Shown here: positions 4,597 through 25,417 of the stretch, piece after piece | How the letters are laid out: each line of letters opens with the position of its first letter | How positions within the stretch are numbered: the first letter of the stretch is position 1 | Assembly (NCBI GenBank): GCA_001804205.1 | Contig: MHFM01000009.1 | Span: 61,588-97,949 of the forward strand | Length of the DNA stretch: 36,362 nt | Direction: 5' to 3' | Source of the DNA: Omnitrophica bacterium RIFCSPLOWO2_01_FULL_45_10b | GTDB taxonomy: Bacteria; Omnitrophota; Omnitrophia; Omnitrophales; Danuiimicrobiaceae | The notes under the pieces: generated by a model | What the model was told of the DNA's origin: nothing | Databases searched by the model: none | The model's input: only the letters and a program-made list of their open reading frames with translations | Made by a program: the position numbers and the translations under genes

Positions 4597-4733
4597 GTCA
4601 TTGCGAGCGACTGAAGGGAGCGAAGCAATCCCATTTATTTATTTTTTTCCATAGGATCGGGATAGCCCCTGTGGGGCAATCTCGGGGATCGCTTCGTCCC
4701 CGCCACAAAACGTTGGCGGGTCCTCGTGATGAC
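4597..4733. repeat. GTCAT...ATGAC palindromic element (137 bp), intergenic
   Basis: GTCATTGCGAGCG at 4597 and CTCGTGATGAC ending at 4733. It contains the GAAGCAATC and GATCGCTTCGTC motifs and the CCCCGCCACAAAACGTTGGCGGG hairpin. The track ORF 4566-4772 is a translation of it. Confidence 0.75.
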
Positions 4734-4752: not shown

Positions 4753-6132
<1,380 letters not shown>

Positions 6133-6641: not shown

Positions 6642-6944
6642 ATGAATGAACATTATGTTTATGTTTTATGTAGTCAGAAGGACAATGAATGGTATATTGG
6701 CCAGACGGATCGGCACCCAGAAGAAAGGCTTCGAGAACATAATGCTGGTCAAATGGTCTCAACCAAATTACGACGTCCTTTGGAATTGATTTACTATGAA
6801 ATGTATCGACATAAGCAAGATGCTTTGGGCCGCGAAAAATTTCTGAAGAGCGGCGCAGGGCATAATTTTGTTCGAAAGCAACTTAGAAATTTTTTGAATC
6901 ATCATCGCGGGGTGGAGCAGCCTGGTAGCTCGCAAGGCTCATAA
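6642..6944 (+). CDS. Small GIY-YIG (URI-domain) nuclease-family protein
   Basis: YVYVLCS...WYIGQT...R..EHN...E motif pattern of stand-alone GIY-YIG proteins. Start is ATG 6642 (or GTG 6636). There is no stop before the tRNA, so the last 13 codons and the stop lie inside tRNA 6906-6982. Confidence 0.8.
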   Translation: MNEHYVYVLCSQKDNEWYIGQTDRHPEERLREHNAGQMVSTKLRRPLELIYYEMYRHKQDALGREKFLKSGAGHNFVRKQLRNFLNHHRGVEQPGSSQGS

Positions 6945-6982
6945 CCTTGAGGTCAGGGGTTCAAATCCCCTCCCCGCTACCA
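6906..6982 (+). tRNA. tRNA-Met (anticodon CAU), initiator-like
   Basis: Hand-folded cloverleaf: acceptor CGCGGGG/CCCCGCT, D arm GAGC/GCTC, anticodon arm CAAGG-CTCATAA-CCTTG, T arm AGGGG-TTCAAAT-CCCCT, CCA encoded. The 5' end is identical to E. coli tRNA-fMet (CGCGGGGTGGAGCAGCCTGGTAGCTCG) and positions 1:72 are unpaired (C:U). There are only two consecutive G:C pairs at the bottom of the anticodon stem. Confidence 0.9.
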
Positions 6983-7111
6983 TTTCTTTCATTTATTTGC
7001 CAGGCCTGAAAGGCCTGGCACTTTCAGAGGTAGAAATGATTGCGGGAAGTGGTCATCCCGTAGAGGAACGTCAAGTTCCTCACGGGAAGTCCTGCCGCAA
7101 AAGCGGCAGGG

Positions 7112-7132
7112 CAAATCCCCTCCCCGCTACCA
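7112..7132 (+). repeat. Exact 21-nt duplicate of the tRNA-Met 3' end (displaced 3' fragment, att-like)
   Basis: CAAATCCCCTCCCCGCTACCA at 7112-7132 is identical to 6962-6982. The 129 nt between them contain the stems GCCAGGCCT/AGGCCTGGC, CCCGT.GAGGAAC/GTTCCTCACGGG and CCTGCCGC/GCGGCAGG. Confidence 0.85.
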
Positions 7133-12835: not shown

Positions 12836-12863
12836 TTTATGCCTTTAGGAGATTTTCCTTCAT

Positions 12864-12936
12864 GGCGGCGTAGCTCAGTTGGTAGAGCAAGGGACTCATA
12901 AGCCCTGGGTCAGAGGTTCGATTCCTCTCGCCGCCA
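12864..12936 (+). tRNA. tRNA with CAU anticodon (elongator Met or lysidine-dependent Ile2); CCA not encoded
   Basis: Acceptor GGCGGCG/CGCCGCC, D arm GCTC/GAGC, anticodon loop CTCATAA (A31:G39 mismatch at the bottom of the stem), T arm AGAGG-TTCGATT-CCTCT. Confidence 0.88.
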
Positions 12937-13066
12937 TTTTTAATTCCTTTGGAATGAAAAAGACTGCGGAGGAATCGAAGTGAGCCCCGTAGATGCGACT
13001 TATTAAGGAGCATCTTGCTACGGGGCGAGTGGCCGACCTGGAGTGAGCGCAGCGAACGTAAGGCGC

Positions 13067-13097
13067 CGATTCCTCTCGCCGCCACCATTTTTATTCC
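13067..13097 (+). repeat. Duplicate of the tRNA 3' end plus flank (displaced 3' fragment, here with CCA)
   Basis: CGATTCCTCTCGCCGCCA (13067-13084) equals 12919-12936. It is followed by CCA and TTTTTATTCC, compared with TTTTTAATTCC after the intact tRNA. The intervening ~120-130 nt carry GAGCCCCGTAG...CTACGGGGC hairpins and an inverted copy (GCGGAGGAATCG) of the T-arm segment. Confidence 0.8.
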
Positions 13098-16559: not shown

Positions 16560-17471
16560 TTGGCGCAAACAGGCCAATGGCCTGCCCGTCCTTTCTTTGA
16601 TGAATTGGGCGCTGATATCTCTATGATCTGGAAAATAAGAGCCGCCGCTCTCACCTTAGAACGTCCGCTGATGATGGGGGTTTTGAATTTAACCCCAGAT
16701 TCTTTTTATGATGGCGGCCGTTTTTTAAATCCCGCCCAAGCTGTCGAACAAGCTTTTCGTTTAATTCAAGAAGGCGCGGATATTTTGGATGTAGGGGCCG
16801 AATCAACAAAGCCGGCCGCAAAACCTGTTTCCGCAGAGGAAGAATGGCACCGCCTGGCGCCGGTATTGGAAGCGCTCAAAGGGCAGGTGCAGGTTCCTAT
16901 TTCTGTTGATACAACCAAGGCTCAAGTTGCAAAACGCGCTCTTGAGTCCGGTGCGCAAATCATTAATGATGTCAGCGGCCTTCGCAATGACCCCAAATTG
17001 GCAGAAGTGGTTAGGGAATTTGATGCCGGGCTTGTATTAATGCATCGCCGGGGAACGCCTGAAACCATGCAGCTCATGGCCGATTATCGGGATGTGGTGG
17101 AAGAAGTTTCCCGCGAGCTTTCGGAAAGTATGGCGATTGCCGAAGCAAGTGGTGTTTCTTCGGACAAAATCGTTTTGGACCCTGGAATCGGATTTTCTAA
17201 GACTGCTGATCAAAGTTTAGAGCTGATTGAACGTTTGGCGGAATTCAAACGGCTGGGCCGGCCCCTATTAATCGGACCATCGCGAAAATCATTTATTGGA
17301 CAAGTAACAAAGATGGCGCCTGACAGGCGGCTTTTTGGGACGACCGCCGCTTGCGTTTTAGCGTTTGAACGCGGCGCGAATATTTTTCGCGTTCACGATG
17401 TTTGGGCCGTCAAGGAAGCCATTTTAGTCGCAGGAGCCATTTTAAATTCTGGAAAGAAAATTTCCTTATGA
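16560..17471 (+). CDS. folP: Dihydropteroate synthase
   Basis: MGVLNLTPDSFYDGG, DVGAESTKP and GPSRKSFIG motifs. Start is TTG 16560 or in-frame ATG 16623. Confidence 0.9.
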   Translation: MAQTGQWPARPFFDELGADISMIWKIRAAALTLERPLMMGVLNLTPDSFYDGGRFLNPAQAVEQAFRLIQEGADILDVGAESTKPAAKPVSAEEEWHRLAPVLEALKGQVQVPISVDTTKAQVAKRALESGAQIINDVSGLRNDPKLAEVVREFDAGLVLMHRRGTPETMQLMADYRDVVEEVSRELSESMAIAEASGVSSDKIVLDPGIGFSKTADQSLELIERLAEFKRLGRPLLIGPSRKSFIGQVTKMAPDRRLFGTTAACVLAFERGANIFRVHDVWAVKEAILVAGAILNSGKKISL

Positions 17472-17577
17472 TCCCGTTAGAACTCTAAACGTAACGGAGT
17501 TATTTCAAATGCAAGCAGTTGAAACCGTGCAACAACCGTTATCATTAAAACCATCATTATTTGGAGTTCTAACGGGA
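17472..17577. mobile_element. MITE, copy 1 (106 bp, 14-bp TIR TCCCGTTAGAACTC) inserted at the folP|yebC junction
   Basis: TCCCGTTAGAACTC (17472-17485) and GAGTTCTAACGGGA (17564-17577) are perfect inverted repeats. About 93% identical to 21829-21934. Flanked by TGA/ATGA on both sides. Confidence 0.8.
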
Positions 17578-18323
17578 TGAGCGGACATTCGAAGTGGGCC
17601 AGTATCAAGCATAAAAAAGCGCTGGTTGATGCCAAGCGCGGTAAGATGTTTACCAAATTGATCCGGGAAATTACCGTGGCGGCGAAAACCGGAGGCGGTG
17701 ACCCCAATACGAACCCGAGGCTTCGTCTTGCGATTAGTACAGCTAAAAGCGGAAATATGCCAGCCGATAATATTGAACGGGCGGTTAAAAAGGGCACAGG
17801 CGCTTTGGAAGGCATTTCGTATGAAGAAGTAGTGTATGAAGGATATGGCCCCGAGGGCGTTGCTGTTTATGTTCAGTGCTTGAGCGATAATAAAAACCGG
17901 ACTGCTTCTGAAATTAGGAATATTTTTTCAAAAAAGTCAGGCAACATGGCCGGAGCCGGTTCCGTATCGTGGCTCTTCGAGCATAAGGGTTTCATTGTCG
18001 TTCATCAAAGCAAAGCAACGGAAGATCAATTGATGGAATTGGTGTTAAATGCAGGCGCCGAAGATTTATCGAAGGTGGGGGATAAATTTGAAATTCTGAC
18101 CAGCCCTCACGATTTTGAAGCAGTAAAAAAAGCGTTGGAAGGAGCTCCTATTCCTTATGAATCTGCAGATCTTCAGATGATTCCAAAAACTTTGGTGTCT
18201 GTTAGCGCTGCCCATGCGCGGCAGGTTTTGGCTTTGATTGAAGCATTGGAAGATCAAGATGATGTACAGCACGTTTATGCCAATTGTGACATTCCGGACG
18301 AAGTGATGAAAGAGGTAGCGTAA
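17577..18323 (+). CDS. yebC: YebC/PmpR-family transcriptional regulator
   Basis: Hallmark N-terminus MSGHSKWASIKHKKA..DAKRGK. 248 aa, upstream of ruvCAB. Confidence 0.9.
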   Translation: MSGHSKWASIKHKKALVDAKRGKMFTKLIREITVAAKTGGGDPNTNPRLRLAISTAKSGNMPADNIERAVKKGTGALEGISYEEVVYEGYGPEGVAVYVQCLSDNKNRTASEIRNIFSKKSGNMAGAGSVSWLFEHKGFIVVHQSKATEDQLMELVLNAGAEDLSKVGDKFEILTSPHDFEAVKKALEGAPIPYESADLQMIPKTLVSVSAAHARQVLALIEALEDQDDVQHVYANCDIPDEVMKEVA

Positions 18324-19432: not shown

Positions 19433-19744
19433 CCCCGTTAGAGATGACGTTGAATCTATTTGAGGGGTCGGGGAGTTTTCCCCGACCCCTCACCCTCGCC
19501 AGCTTCATTACATTGAAGATTCAAGTTCAATGAAGCTGGCAGAGGGTTACCTTAAGGAAATCCTACGCCCGCCAAAGATCGTTGGCGGGCTCAGGATGAG
19601 CCGTCGGGGACAGATTAAAAAGAGCTCCCCGATGGCTCATCTATTTAAACGTGCTTAATTAAGGGAAAAATGCTGCAGAAATTACTTCATCGGTTGAATT
19701 GTAATCTACGGAAACGCCAGAGGTGTTTCCTATCTCTAACGGGG
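19433..19744. mobile_element. 312-bp composite non-autonomous element with CCCCGTTAGAGAT inverted ends, filled with nested palindromes
   Basis: CCCCGTTAGAGAT (19433-19445) and ATCTCTAACGGGG (19732-19744). TAAG is present on both flanks (19429-19432 and 19745-19748). The interior holds the GAGGGGTCGGGG hairpin (19461-19492), a ~17-bp CCCTCGCCAGCTTCATT stem, the CCCGCCAA...TTGGCGGG hairpin and a 16-bp GATGAGCCGTCGGGGA stem. Confidence 0.65.
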
Positions 19745-19754
19745 TAAGCCGGAG

Positions 19755-20774
19755 ATGGAATCGGAAAGATTAGTTACGCAAGTTCTGCGCGAAGAAGACC
19801 TCGAGTTTGACAGTTCGCTTAGGCCCACGCAGTTTAAGGAATTTGTGGGCCAGGATAAAATCAAGGAGAATCTTTCCGTTTATATTGAAGCGGCCAAAAA
19901 ACGCAAGGAGTCGCTTGATCATGTTTTGCTTTTCGGTCCGCCGGGGCTCGGAAAAACTACCCTCGCCCATTTAATTGCAAAAGAAATGAACGCCAACATT
20001 CGAATTACCTCAGGGCCTGTTTTGGAGCGCGCGGGAGATTTGGCCGGTCTTTTGACGAATTTAGAAGAAGGCGATGTTTTATTCATCGATGAAATTCACC
20101 GCTTGTCTCATGTCGTGGAAGAATATTTATATCCCGCGATGGAAGATTATATTTTGGACATCATGATTGATAAAGGGCCAAATGCCCGCTCGGTTCGACT
20201 CAATCTTCCGCGTTTTACATTGGTCGGCGCGACGACTCGAAGCGGTCTTTTGACTTCGCCCCTTCGTTCGCGTTTTGGAATTGTGGAGCGAATTAATTAT
20301 TATTCAGATGAGGAGTTAACCACGATCGTCAGCCGTTCCGCCCGGCTTTTAAAAGTTGAAATTGATTCAAGAGGTGCCCATGAAATCGCTCGTCGCTCGC
20401 GAGGCACACCACGAATTGCCAATCGGCTTCTTAGGCGGGTGCGTGATTTTGCGCAAGTGAAAGCCAATGGTAAAGTGACCGCTGAGGTTGCTGATCAGGC
20501 GCTTAAAATGCTGGAGGTTGATGAAGCCGGCTTGGATCAAATGGATAAACGTATTCTTCAGTATCTTTTGCATGAATGCAGCGGTGGCCCGGTGGGCCTT
20601 AATACGCTTTCGGTTGCCATTGGCGAGGAAAGCGAAACTTTGGAAGAAATTTATGAGCCTTATTTGATTCAAAAAGGATTTTTGAAACGCACTCAATCGG
20701 GCCGCATGCTTACGAAATTGGCATACACTCATTTCGGCGTAGAACCGACAAAACGTCAGAAAGAGCTCTGGTAA
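19755..20774 (+). CDS. ruvB: Holliday junction DNA helicase RuvB
   Basis: Walker [10 protein letters not shown], Walker B FIDEIHRL, and [16 protein letters not shown]. Confidence 0.95.
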
Positions 20775-20993: not shown

Positions 20994-21827
20994 ATGCATT
21001 CCTTAATCCTTTGGAAAGCGTTGCTGGAAATCGGATTTATCTGGGTTCTCGTCTATTTTATGATCCGTTTTCTCCAGGGCACCCGTGCTGTCCAAGTTTT
21101 GAGCGGCTTGATCCTGCTTGTGATTTTATTCAATGTCGCAAAAATTTTGGAACTCAGCACGATCAATTGGGTTCTTACCAAATTGTTTGCGGTCGGCGTT
21201 CTTGCCTTTTTGATTCTCTTCCAGCCTGAGCTGCGCCGCGGCTTGGCGCGGATCGGCCAGAATACCATTTTCAATCCCTTTCTCAAAAAAGGCGGAACCG
21301 TCGATGAAGTTGTAGAAGCTTGTCAGCGGATGTCCAAAATGAAGCGCGGCGCTTTGATTGCAATTGAACGCGAAGCAGGGCTTAAAAATTATATCGAAAG
21401 CGGCATTCCTCTTGATGCCAAAATAAGTTCTGAGATTTTGTTGACGATTTTTGCTACCAATACGCCTACCCACGACGGTGCCGTGATCATTGAAGGTGAC
21501 CGGGTGGCTTCGGCGGGTTCGCTTTTTCCATTGAGTCAAAGTCAAACTCTGCCGCGCGCATTAGGGACACGGCATCGCGCCGCAATCGGTTTGACCGAGG
21601 AAACAGACGCGGTTTGTGTTGTTGTTTCAGAGGAAACAGGAGCTATTTCCGTTTCGGTTTATGGGAAACTGACGCGCGATTTGGACGAAGAAGGGCTCCG
21701 GCGCGTCTTAAAGAGTCTTTTTAGGCCTGAGGAACGGGGACGCGCTTTTCTGGATTATGTTCAACAGCGTTTTCGTTTCACCGGCTTCACGAAACGCGAC
21801 AATGGAGAGGAAAAGGCGCCAGAATGA
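20994..21827 (+). CDS. cdaA: Diadenylate cyclase (c-di-AMP synthase), membrane-bound CdaA type
   Basis: Three N-terminal TMs plus DAC domain motifs HDGAVII and GTRHRAAIGLTEETDA. Confidence 0.9.
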   Translation: MHSLILWKALLEIGFIWVLVYFMIRFLQGTRAVQVLSGLILLVILFNVAKILELSTINWVLTKLFAVGVLAFLILFQPELRRGLARIGQNTIFNPFLKKGGTVDEVVEACQRMSKMKRGALIAIEREAGLKNYIESGIPLDAKISSEILLTIFATNTPTHDGAVIIEGDRVASAGSLFPLSQSQTLPRALGTRHRAAIGLTEETDAVCVVVSEETGAISVSVYGKLTRDLDEEGLRRVLKSLFRPEERGRAFLDYVQQRFRFTGFTKRDNGEEKAPE

Positions 21828-21934
21828 TTCCCGTTAGAACTCTGAACTTAACGGAGTTAGTTCAAATGCAAGCAGTTGAAACCGGGCAACAACCGTTATC
21901 ATTAAAACCACCGTTATCTGGAGTTCTAACGGGA
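21828..21934. mobile_element. MITE, copy 2 (107 bp), inserted at the cdaA|cdaR junction
   Basis: TCCCGTTAGAACTC (21829-21842) and GAGTTCTAACGGGA (21921-21934). About 7 mismatches versus copy 1. Flanked by ATGA on both sides. Confidence 0.8.
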
Positions 21935-22878
21935 TGACGCGGTTTCGTTTGAGCTGGCTGATTGAAAATTGGGGCATTAAGCTGATTGCACTCATCCTTG
22001 CCGTCGGCTTTTGGTTTTATGTGGTAAGCGAAGAAAGCATCGAAGCAACCAAAACGATCCCGCTTGCCATTATTTCTCCGAGCAATCAATTGAGAGTTGT
22101 GAAAAGTTCCTCTTCCTTTTTGGAAGTAACATTTCAATCACCTCGGCATTTGTTTTCCGCGTTTTCTTCCGGAAATGTTACGGCGCGCCATAAAATCGAA
22201 GGGATCCAAAAGCCCGGCGATTACTCGTTCAACGTATCGGTGAATGATTTTACGCTTCCGGCGCCTGAAATTAGAGTTGTAAAAATTTTTCCTTCTTTTA
22301 TTACCGTTTCACTTGATGAAGTCATTGTCAAAAAACTTCCCGTTCAAGTGGATTTAGTTGGAGAACCGGCTTATGGGTATCGAGCAGACCAGGAGGCTAT
22401 TGAATTGGATCCAAATGCGGTTTTAGTTGAAGGGCCTAAAGCTGCGCTTGAGAAAATGGATACGATTAAAACAGAGCCTATTCAATTGGTTGGGCGGGTG
22501 CGTTCTTTTCGCCGTACGGTGAAGATTGCCGTGCTTCCGGAAATACGCGTTGTGGGAGATGCCATTACCGAGGTTCAGATTCCCATTAAAGCAGAATTTT
22601 CAGAACGGGAAATTCCGGATGTTCATGTTAAGATCCTTGGCACACCTTCTGCCGATCGTTATGCGCGAGTGGTGACGGATCAAATTGCGATTACCCTAAA
22701 AGGGCCGCAGGCCGTTCTGGATAAACTTGCAGCAACGGATATTTTGGCTTATGTTGAGGTAGAGGGTTTAAAAGAAGGAATTCAAGAGGTACCTGTAAAA
22801 CTCATTTTGCCGCCCGAAGTATCCCTCAAGGAAAAATTTCCACTTGCCTCAGTTGAAGTTAAGAAGCTAAAGTTTTGA
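21934..22878 (+). CDS. cdaR: CdaR (YbbR-domain) regulator of CdaA
   Basis: N-terminal TM followed by repeated YbbR-like beta modules (..V.V....P.G...). Canonical position after cdaA. Confidence 0.75.
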   Translation: MTRFRLSWLIENWGIKLIALILAVGFWFYVVSEESIEATKTIPLAIISPSNQLRVVKSSSSFLEVTFQSPRHLFSAFSSGNVTARHKIEGIQKPGDYSFNVSVNDFTLPAPEIRVVKIFPSFITVSLDEVIVKKLPVQVDLVGEPAYGYRADQEAIELDPNAVLVEGPKAALEKMDTIKTEPIQLVGRVRSFRRTVKIAVLPEIRVVGDAITEVQIPIKAEFSEREIPDVHVKILGTPSADRYARVVTDQIAITLKGPQAVLDKLAATDILAYVEVEGLKEGIQEVPVKLILPPEVSLKEKFPLASVEVKKLKF

Positions 22879-23627: not shown

Positions 23628-23633
23628 AAAAAC

Positions 23634-23761
23634 GTCATCCCCGCGTGTTTTAAGCGGGGATCCAGACTTATAGATTCCCGACACTTTCGGAGAAGAACAT
23701 CAAGTTCTTCCCGAAAAGTGCTCCGCGCATGAGCGCGAGCGTTAAAGATTTCGGGAATGAC
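23634..23761. repeat. GTCAT...ATGAC palindromic element (128 bp)
   Basis: GTCATCCCCGCG...TAAGCGGGGATC at the left and GATTTCGGGAATGAC at the right. Internal stems are GAAGAAC/GTTCTTC and GCTCCGCGC/GCGCGAGC. It overlaps the annotated 5' end of nnrD. Confidence 0.75.
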
Positions 23762-25162: not shown

Positions 25163-25224
25163 GTCATTCCCACGATCTTTAAGCGGGAATCTATGGATCC
25201 CCGATAAAAGATTTCGGGGATGAC
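25163..25224. repeat. Short (62-bp) GTCAT...ATGAC palindromic element
   Basis: GTCATTCCCACG...TAAGCGGGAATC + GATCCCCGATAAAAGATTTCGGGGATGAC. Both halves match the ends of the element at 23634-23761. Confidence 0.7.
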
Positions 25225-25238
25225 AGTTTGGTTCTATT

Positions 25239-25250: not shown

Positions 25251-25417
25251 TCCGCCACAAAGCGTGGCGAGACCCGTCCAAAACAACGCTTTGCGGACGG
25301 ACCTCGCCGCGTTGTTTGGCGGGCAGGGGCAGAGCAACGGTTTTGCCCCGAGCAAAAACGCTCGGGATCGACCGCGAGGAGTCCTGGGCCGCCGGAGCTG
25401 ATCGGAATAAACTATCT

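Follow-up and report, generated by a model that had tools for sequence, protein, structure and literature searches.

A short inverted-repeat element at two gene junctions

In a 36,362-nt stretch of contig MHFM01000009.1 of Omnitrophica bacterium RIFCSPLOWO2_01_FULL_45_10b (hereafter the window, meaning the whole stretch that was analysed), two gene junctions, folP-yebC and cdaA-cdaR, are each occupied by one copy of the same short element, here called copy A and copy B (Table 1). An initial annotation of this DNA had described two near-identical copies with perfect 14-bp inverted ends, and this description holds: the copies are 94% identical over 109 nt, their terminal inverted repeats agree at 14 of 14 nt, and only the start of copy B had to be corrected, to 21829, with an extra T at 21828. 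The 14-mer TCCCGTTAGAACTC has exactly four matches in the window, which form two inverted pairs; 0.24 would be expected by chance and none of 100 shuffled sequences reached four. Matches to NCBIfam and Pfam families confirm the names given to the four flanking genes. YebC matches its family profile from residue 1 on, which supports the rebuilt ATG as its true start, and the cdaR homologues are of equal length, with 99-100% coverage.

At both junctions the upstream stop codon is kept (TGA at 17469-71 in folP and at 21825-27 in cdaA), the downstream ATG is rebuilt at the end of the element (17577 for yebC, 21934 for cdaR), and a GGAG stands 10 nt 5' of the rebuilt ATG (17563-66 and 21920-23), exactly as first read. 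In copy B a 37-codon open reading frame (ORF) spans the element and joins the two host genes; the same ORF occurs in loci L088 and L104, and a homologous one is found in L045. In copy A the relic start codon opens six codons only, and a separate internal ORF leads to yebC. This arrangement, with its 4-nt left repeat, is seen at 9 sites, copy A included, of the 100-nt subfamily to which the window copies belong, and the internal Met codon and its GGAG are retained in nearly all copies of that subfamily, the exceptions being mostly outliers with another interior. An element ORF would encode a peptide such as VRTLNLTELVQMQAVETGQQPLSLK. Gene calling placed no gene inside the element, and among the window ORFs that were scanned none showed a transposase domain, in line with the initial annotation. 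On the minus strand, two ORFs overlapping the copies (17477-17815 and 21862-22137) lack any match in Pfam and were taken to be spurious. The element was also considered as a carrier of a promoter or terminator, an idea that was dropped when a scan for both found no promoter-like or terminator-like site inside copy A or copy B.

Table 1. Features of the window discussed in the text (window positions)
Feature	Coordinates	Strand	Remarks
folP, dihydropteroate synthase, gene 5' of copy A	16560..17471	+	NCBIfam TIGR01496, E 9.9e-100
Left target duplicate ATGA, copy A	17468..17471	+	Holds relic yebC ATG (17468-70) overlapping the folP stop; from the sequence and the empty site in L043 and L041
6-codon ORF MIPLEL* from relic start codon	17468..17488	+	4-nt-repeat variant, out of phase with the open frame of the element
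Element copy A	17472..17577	+	Inverted ends 17472-17485 and 17564-17577; last A is the A of the yebC ATG
Internal GGAG, copy A	17496..17499	+	9 nt before internal ATG at 17509
Internal 23-codon ORF MQAVETVQQPLSLKPSLFGVLTG*, copy A	17509..17580	+	TGA 17578-80 overlaps yebC ATG 17577-79
GGAG 10 nt 5' of yebC ATG	17563..17566	+	Within the final codons of the small ORF and within the predicted terminal stem
yebC	17577..18323	+	NF001030, residues 1-247 against profile positions 1-244; right duplicate ATGA 17577-17580
Third element, 312 nt, ruvA-ruvB	19433..19744	+	Ends CCCCGTTAGAGAT / ATCTCTAACGGGG; core CCCGTTAGA shared with the main family
cdaA, diadenylate cyclase	20994..21827	+	TIGR00159, E 3.4e-73; Pfam DAC
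Left direct repeat ATGAT, copy B	21824..21828	+	ATG 21824-26 overlaps the cdaA stop
37-codon read-through ORF MIPVRTLNLTELVQMQAVETGQQPLSLKPPLSGVLTG*, copy B	21824..21937	+	From duplicated ATG to TGA 21935-37, which overlaps the cdaR ATG
Element copy B	21829..21934	+	Inverted ends 21829-21842 and 21921-21934
cdaR, YbbR-domain regulator of CdaA	21934..22878	+	Pfam YbbR, E 1.6e-15; right repeat ATGAC 21934-21938

Filled and empty sites

Contigs of relatives were fetched via their YebC proteins. The empty folP-yebC site predicted in the initial annotation, TTATGAGCGG, is found verbatim in two of them, L043 (YebC 95% identical) and L041 (87%), where the junction reads TCCTTATGAGCGGCC in L043, the closest relative, and TCCTTATGAGCGGGC in L041. 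Of the contigs fetched for the window's own species, 10 extend to this site, and the element is present in all 10. Because every own-species contig that reaches the site is filled and L043 is empty, the insertion at folP-yebC is fixed in the species and younger than its split from L043. The empty site predicted for the second junction was not recovered: among relatives with 71-76% CdaR identity the cdaA-cdaR junction reads CTAATGCG or CTGATGCG, both 1-nt overlaps, or TAAAATG. The closest CdaR relative (85%; P0122 contig, ERZ27297570) has a gap of 85 nt between cdaA and cdaR; if the same element fills it, that copy would be 21 nt (7 codons) shorter than copy B.

One further contig, L005 (ANAN16 scaffold_60302), joins the left flank of the L106 site, a SIS-domain gene, to the element and then to yebC (700-813). 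Either the assembly is chimeric across the repeat here, or copies have recombined with each other.

A dispersed family with constant ends

The search for further copies that the initial annotation had suggested was made with a pattern of two 11-nt end cores separated by a 65-95-nt gap, leaving flanks and interior unconstrained. It matched 28 stretches in the genome collection and 71 in the metagenome collection; in the scan of viral contigs the paired ends were absent. Hosts in the genome collection are Omnitrophica CG07_land, many metagenome-assembled genomes (MAGs) of Saccharibacteria and one MAG labelled Limnocylindria. After removal of duplicates, 74 distinct insertion sites remain, a few of them orthologous sites in close relatives, and they are spread over at least three phyla. 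Single bins hold several copies (at least 9 in CAIUKF01 bin-329 and at least 10 in IMG bin Ga0155264), and GCA_001804055.1 and PEWV01 are further MAGs rich in copies. The interiors are very diverse, falling into 15 clusters below 60% identity, and the ends are constant: the layout is ATGNN, T CCCGTTAGAACTC ... GAGTTCTAACGGG, ATGNN, with an outer terminus, CCCGTTAGA, that is invariant across the family, TCTAACGGG at the opposite end and inverted repeats of 15-16 bp. Every site holds a single unit and tandem arrays do not occur. Elements range from 83 to 205 nt and contain nothing larger than an ORF of 26-66 codons. No autonomous partner was found, in that the 115 fetched loci show no unpaired or widely spaced ends, whole genomes not having been searched for ends more than 600 nt apart. 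Acidobacterial repeats of 89-93 nt (L013, L030, L062, L066, L092, L098 and L101) were examined for targeting of stop codons and set aside as another family; they share the CGTTAGAACTC core but end in ACGTTAGAACTCAATC, are flanked by T-N-A and have no consistent association with a start codon, stop codon or ORF.

Is the flanking ATGNN a target duplication or merely a shared context? The 5-nt repeat is perfect at 42 of 65 sites. Its positions 4-5 (AA, GA, AG, AT or CG) agree between left and right at 44 of 51 sites, against 16.9 by shuffling with a maximum of 27, and because these variable positions covary the repeat is a genuine target duplication. The 3-4 bp first proposed stand in so far as the duplication contains ATGA, but the family repeat is the 5-nt ATGNN and copy A, with 4 nt, is a variant of it. 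Position 4 is A at 38 sites, G at 12, C at 1 and T at none, a purine preference that suggests some sequence preference of integration. The 4-5-bp duplication suggests a staggered cut, and the element would have moved by means of a putative transposase that makes it.

The element is therefore mobile and non-autonomous, with terminal inverted repeats in the manner of MITEs (miniature inverted-repeat transposable elements). We give practically no chance to the opposite reading, an immobile, ancient leader or spacer inherited vertically, in which gene conversion would account for the likeness of the window copies. Its occurrence at folP-yebC in every own-species contig that reaches the site would fit such a history, but the empty sites at 95% and 87% YebC identity refute it, as do the 74 flanking contexts in at least three phyla and the covariation within the direct repeat.

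The start codon as the common target

The initial annotation took the 4-nt stop/start overlap to be the specific target. This does not extend to the family, since at only 22 of the 74 sites does the repeat contain an upstream ORF's stop, and what the sites have in common is a start codon. At 70 of 74 sites the right ATG, GTG or TTG begins an ORF that is 60 codons or longer or that runs off the contig. The two copies of the repeat have also decayed differently: mutated left copies still stop (TAA, TAG) and mutated right copies still start (GTG, TTG). Upstream of the element the contexts are heterogeneous. Besides the 22 ATGA-type overlaps there are 6 sites where the upstream ORF ends at a TAG within the left inverted repeat, and about 10 that have a Shine-Dalgarno-like motif and at which no upstream ORF ends. 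Among the 43 sites that lack an upstream ORF, 20 have a strong -10 box (TATAAT, at least 5 of 6 matching) 6-9 nt 5' of the left ATG, with a peak at 7-8 nt, as against 2.7% of background ATGs; these 20 look like leaderless genes. In the window's own 100-nt subfamily overlaps predominate, with ATGA at 12 of 18 sites and a stop in the left inverted repeat at 3 more. Because 70 of the right ATGs open real ORFs and the upstream contexts differ from site to site, the common denominator of the target is the gene start codon (ATGRN) and not the stop/start overlap. The integration machinery may choose start codons, or these may simply be the only sites at which insertion is tolerated.

A reading frame that is kept open

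Sixty copies still have the left ATG, and in 46 of them the ORF that it opens spans the whole element. In 42 copies this ORF stops at a TAA that the right inverted repeat supplies (GAG TTC TAA cggg ATG), 7 nt before the host ATG with a 4-nt spacer left between, and in the other 4 at the TGA of the right ATGA. Over all 74 copies the read-through frame is free of stops in 65, compared with 0 and 3 for the other two sense frames and 0-6 for the antisense frames. When the interiors were shuffled (2000 trials), 7.7 of 53 frames were open on average and 18 at most; 50 of 53 are open in reality. The frame is open in every member of 13 of the 15 clusters, and most subfamilies have internal lengths of 93, 96, 99, 102 or 105 nt, that is, they differ by whole codons. 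Variants of other sizes (83, 85 and 205 nt) keep the frame open as well, with 28, 26 and 66 codons. In no copy is the ORF in phase with the host gene. The 205-nt variant (L103, 5158-5365) contains nested hairpins and yet an unbroken 66-codon ORF up to the TAA in the right inverted repeat, and has a TACAAT box on its 5' side.

What is preserved in this frame is not the peptide. Codon positions 1-3 of the element ORF are equally variable, and the synonymous fraction of single-base codon differences is 0.26-0.30, near the neutral expectation of 0.22-0.23 and far from the 0.85-0.94 of yebC. A phmmer search of 1.84 billion representative proteins yielded no real homologue of the window's 37-aa peptide, the only match being a spurious, low-complexity one to an 872-aa protein. 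Because the codon positions vary equally, the synonymous fraction is near neutral and homologues are lacking, selection acts against stops and frameshifts and not on the product, which evolves neutrally. It is accordingly very improbable, in our estimate, that the element is a mobile gene for a functional protein of 33-37 aa (a toxin, membrane peptide or regulator) whose peptide is itself selected. Such a gene would account for the maintenance of the ORF across phyla and for its constant residues, M-x-PVRT at the N-terminus and SEF or VLTG at the C-termini, but these termini are encoded by the inverted repeats, and neither the near-neutral interior nor the spread of lengths from 26 to 66 codons is what a conserved product would give.

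A predicted terminal stem that encloses the host start

The element is predicted to fold as RNA into a long hairpin, at -33.3 kcal/mol (z = -6.0) for copy A and -36.8 kcal/mol (z = -5.1) for copy B. Across 27 divergent copies the only structure shared according to RNAalifold is a terminal stem of 16 bp (-23 kcal/mol); conserved interior structure or covariation within the main family was not found. This predicted stem includes the GAG or GGAG motif and the A and U of the host AUG, and when the flanks are folded together with the element both ATGs come to lie at its base. The U of the AUG has as its partner the fifth base of the left repeat, in an A-U pair in 19 copies and a G-U pair in 7. A U-G wobble adjoins the stem in 36 copies and would pair on the sense strand only. 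In 8 variant subfamilies both arms have changed in a matched manner (for example TGCCG/CGGCA, GAGCTC/GAGCTC, GACCT/AGGTC, GAAGT/ACTTC, AAAACT/AGTTTT), while the outer CCCGTTAGA is unchanged. Rfam 15 models matched four tRNAs only at the gathering score in the window, and nothing at E <= 1 over 17440-17610.

Two other explanations bear on this structure. The element might be chiefly a hairpin that acts in cis as RNA or DNA, whether as a translational repressor or thermosensor stem, an RNase III site or a single-stranded DNA hairpin used in transposition, with the open frame a secondary matter. The strength of the terminal stem and its z scores of -5 to -6 speak for it, as do the matched double changes in the arms around an invariant terminus and the sense-only wobble. 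As a complete account it is nevertheless decidedly unlikely, because it predicts neither the phase-preserving lengths nor the placement of the stop, and the main family offers no conserved interior structure and no covariation; even at E = 1 there is no Rfam match. A functional stem is at the same time compatible with the relay of translation proposed below and does not exclude it.

The second explanation is an ordinary MITE that landed in ATGA overlaps, uncoupled the genes and left the downstream gene to be translated independently from the GGAG that the element brings. The inverted ends, the target duplication and the empty site are all MITE features, and GGAG does precede the host ATG by 10 nt in both window copies. 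As a general property of the element, however, the element-borne GGAG did not survive the comparison: it is present in 39 of 74 copies and 32 of 74 have TGAG in its place, and where it occurs it is paired, along with the first two bases of the AUG, inside the predicted 16-bp stem. This explanation also leaves the stop-free frame, the whole-codon length changes and a stop placed on the host ATG or 4 nt before it without a reason, and we consider it unlikely.

A model for translation relay

Based on these observations, we propose that the element, which duplicates the start codon of its host gene, relays translation to that gene rather than breaking its coupling. We put the probability of the relay at about 75%, whereas our confidence in the description of the element is high. 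The element integrates at a host start codon and duplicates the 4-5 bp that contain it (ATGNN). The left ATG keeps the native initiation context of the gene, be it an overlapping upstream stop, a Shine-Dalgarno sequence or, in a leaderless mRNA, the 5' end, and the ORF that it opens crosses the element to a TAA 4 nt before the rebuilt ATG or to the TGA of an ATGA overlapping it. In the mRNA the inverted ends would pair over some 16 bp with both ATGs at the base, masking the GAG or GGAG together with the host start codon's first two bases. Ribosomes that translate the small ORF would melt this stem and terminate at or beside the host start, where they would reinitiate through unfolding of the RNA, through termination-reinitiation coupling, or through both. 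Both models of translational coupling have been reviewed (PMC12548453), and our proposal combines them. Host expression would then stay tied to the original initiation signals, and insertion would be nearly neutral.

For the window copies this means that the claim of broken coupling, made in the initial annotation, is probably to be reversed, as small ORFs link the neighbours in both and the frame is stop-free throughout the family. In copy B the chain would run from cdaA through an ATGA into the 37-codon ORF and through a second ATGA into cdaR. In copy A the relic ATG would lead into the 6-codon ORF, after which the internal GGAG and the 23-codon ORF would bring ribosomes to yebC by way of the ATGA overlap. 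The stoichiometric link between cdaA and cdaR is thus probably relayed rather than lost.

Independent support for the relay comes from the folP-yebC junction itself, where three unrelated insertions all keep a relay ORF. In addition to copy A, L042 (YebC 90%) carries there a different element of 103 nt (5999-6109) with 16-bp ends TCCCACCACCTCCTTT / AAAGGAGGTGGTGGGA and a 36-codon ORF that has an ATGA overlap at either side. Of the two arms of this element, the 5' one mimics the anti-Shine-Dalgarno sequence of the 16S rRNA 3' end and the 3' one is a Shine-Dalgarno sequence. In L039 (6789-7004, equivalent to L040 1084-1299; YebC 89%) the junction holds a 212-nt insert built of GTCATTGCGAGG-type and CCCGCCA...TGGCGGG-type repeats, with a 71-codon ORF that again has ATGA overlaps on both sides and has been called as a 71-aa gene.

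Several observations weigh against the relay. Coupling and initiation are reported to decrease when structure lies just 3' of an upstream stop or start (PMC12548453); with a stem that starts 2-5 nt after the left ATG, the relay may be inefficient at its first step. In 9 of 18 copies of the window's subfamily, copy A included, the left ATG is out of phase and opens the 6-codon ORF; copies of this type need a second step via the internal GGAG and ATG, for which the argument is weaker. A stop interrupts the read-through frame in 9 of 74 copies, and 4 of the 74 right ATGs open short ORFs only. The relatives' cdaA-cdaR junctions do not show the ancestral ATGA, GAATGACGCGG, that the history of copy B would predict. 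The fetched loci contain neither an autonomous partner nor an unpaired inverted end. Finally, because the related 312-nt element at ruvA-ruvB duplicated TAAG and not ATG, the integration enzyme is arguably not strictly specific for ATG.

Related elements and other repeats

The 312-nt element lies between the two copies in the window and interrupts ruvA-ruvB. Its direct repeat TAAG (19429-32 and 19745-48) contains the ruvA stop. The empty site, GTCTAAACCGGAAATGG, is found in L043, L041 and L042, which have an 8-nt overlap of ruvA with ruvB; the same 8-nt overlap is intact in the P0122 contig. The old ruvB ATG (19424) now opens MSKPR*, and the start of ruvB has moved 5 codons on, to 19755. A 25-codon ORF inside the insert (19670-19747) ends at the TAA of the repeat, 7 nt before the ATG at 19755, and the insert also contains nested hairpin repeats. 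In L091 (12089-12116) a 27-nt palindrome, CCCGTTAGAGAT-GTC-ATCTCTAATGGGG, consists of the two ends of the ruvA-ruvB type, which almost abut; this might be an element reduced to its minimum or the footprint of an excision.

Other repeats are scattered through the window. Hairpins of the form CCCGCCA-N-TGGCGGG, resembling repetitive extragenic palindromic (REP) sequences, occur at 4699-4720, 5575-5596, 19568-19589 and 25252-25274, in intergenic DNA and inside the ruvA-ruvB insert. A second repeat family, of GTCATCCCCGCG...CGGGGATGAC type, is seen at 23629-23664 and 25163-25229, and one of its copies fills a gap of about 100 nt between pdxJ and the gene for NAD(P)H-hydrate dehydratase that measures only 2 nt in L041. 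For both tRNA-Met genes a second copy of the 3' end lies about 150 nt further downstream (6906-6982 / 7111-7132 and 12863-12937 / 13057-13095), which looks like the attachment-site duplication of a small integrated or excised element.

Implications

What are the implications of a translation relay for the spread of mobile DNA? If our model is correct, the family is a clear natural case of a transposon shaped to be invisible to translation, and it would explain how mobile DNA persists in compact genomes with small intergenic spaces, such as those of Saccharibacteria and Omnitrophica. An idea noted so far only for MIRUs, the interspersed repetitive units of mycobacteria, would extend to other phyla and to leaderless genes, and the family would serve as a natural test bed for the termination-reinitiation and RNA-unfolding models of coupling. 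There are practical consequences as well: gene callers will miss mini-ORFs of this kind, gaps of about 100 nt are open to being misread as uncoupled junctions, and the element may cause assembly chimeras, as perhaps in L005.

A wider scheme can be imagined, which we regard as doubtful and offer only tentatively. Elements with the CCCGTTAGA terminus might form a cross-phylum superfamily of start-codon-homing transposons whose machinery recognises start sites, the 5'-terminal AUG of leaderless mRNAs among them. An autonomous parent, with neither promoter nor ribosome-binding site (RBS) of its own, would express its transposase from the captured host start (M-x-PVRT...SEF*) and hand the ribosomes back to the host gene, and the short elements would be its in-frame deletion derivatives.

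Comparison with known systems

Literature searches returned no description of this family, of MITEs combined with translational coupling or of MITEs in Saccharibacteria, and the end sequence appeared in no paper in a relevant context. By its inverted repeats, target duplication, small size, multiple copies, filled and empty sites and want of a transposase gene, the element belongs structurally with the MITEs, save that the fetched loci showed no autonomous partner with matching ends. Classical bacterial MITE families duplicate TA or a similar target and scatter through intergenic DNA, and we know of none described as duplicating a start codon or as maintaining an open read-through frame up to the start of the host gene. 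Correia/CREE, ERIC, RUP and Nezha elements are about 100-150 bp long, carry terminal inverted repeats and a target duplication but no transposase, are present in many copies with filled and empty sites, and are co-transcribed as long RNA hairpins (PMC3184786). The upstream repeats of Neisseria (REP2) and Borrelia were also compared (PMC3184786); REP2 brings a promoter as well and joins its own ATG to the gene, and it has no terminal inverted repeats, start-codon duplication or separate coupled ORF. REP and REPIN sequences, which are short GC-rich palindromes or inverted REP doublets lacking a target duplication, are not a match, since the present element has a 4-5-bp duplication and its ends are not GC-rich and REP-like.

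Two systems resemble the element in keeping a frame open. Rickettsia palindromic elements (RPEs) are palindromic, mobile units of about 100-150 bp that persist because they remain translationally open where they insert (Ogata et al. 2000, cited in PMC3184786). RPEs, however, insert into coding sequence and become part of the host protein, whereas here the ORF is a separate upstream mini-cistron that is never in phase with the host ORF. In leader-ORF coupling, as in phage f1 VII/IX, rpmI-rplT and synthetic bicistronic designs, a short ORF opens a masked downstream RBS (PMC12548453). Such leaders end at or near the downstream start and hold a Shine-Dalgarno sequence in their last codons, and the element appears to work in this way; they are, however, fixed features of operons or engineered cassettes and not a mobile repeat family.

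The closest likeness is to the MIRUs. As summarised from Supply et al. 1997, these are apparently mobile sequences of 40-100 bp that lie between operon genes or at start codons and are co-transcribed with them (PMC12548453, PMC3184786). They carry a coupled small ORF with -4 spacing, whose ends overlap the neighbouring genes (PMC12548453), and they have 4-nt direct repeats and imperfect inverted repeats (PMC3184786). Reviews read this design as one that allows insertion with little effect on expression (PMC12548453, PMC3184786). The intercistronic or start-codon site and the internal ORF that overlaps the flanking genes are common to both families, and the functional logic is the same. MIRUs, on the other hand, are GC-rich sequences of Mycobacterium that often stand in tandem arrays, as variable-number tandem repeats (VNTRs), and their inverted repeats are imperfect. 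The element described here has perfect ends of 14-16 bp with the invariant CCCGTTAGA, is present as single units flanked by ATGNN, often at leaderless genes, and its hosts are Omnitrophica, Saccharibacteria and a Limnocylindria MAG; by description it is set apart from MIRU. The logic of a relay is therefore already known from MIRU, and what distinguishes the present family is its ends, its ATGNN duplication, its single units, the phyla in which it resides and its association with leaderless genes.

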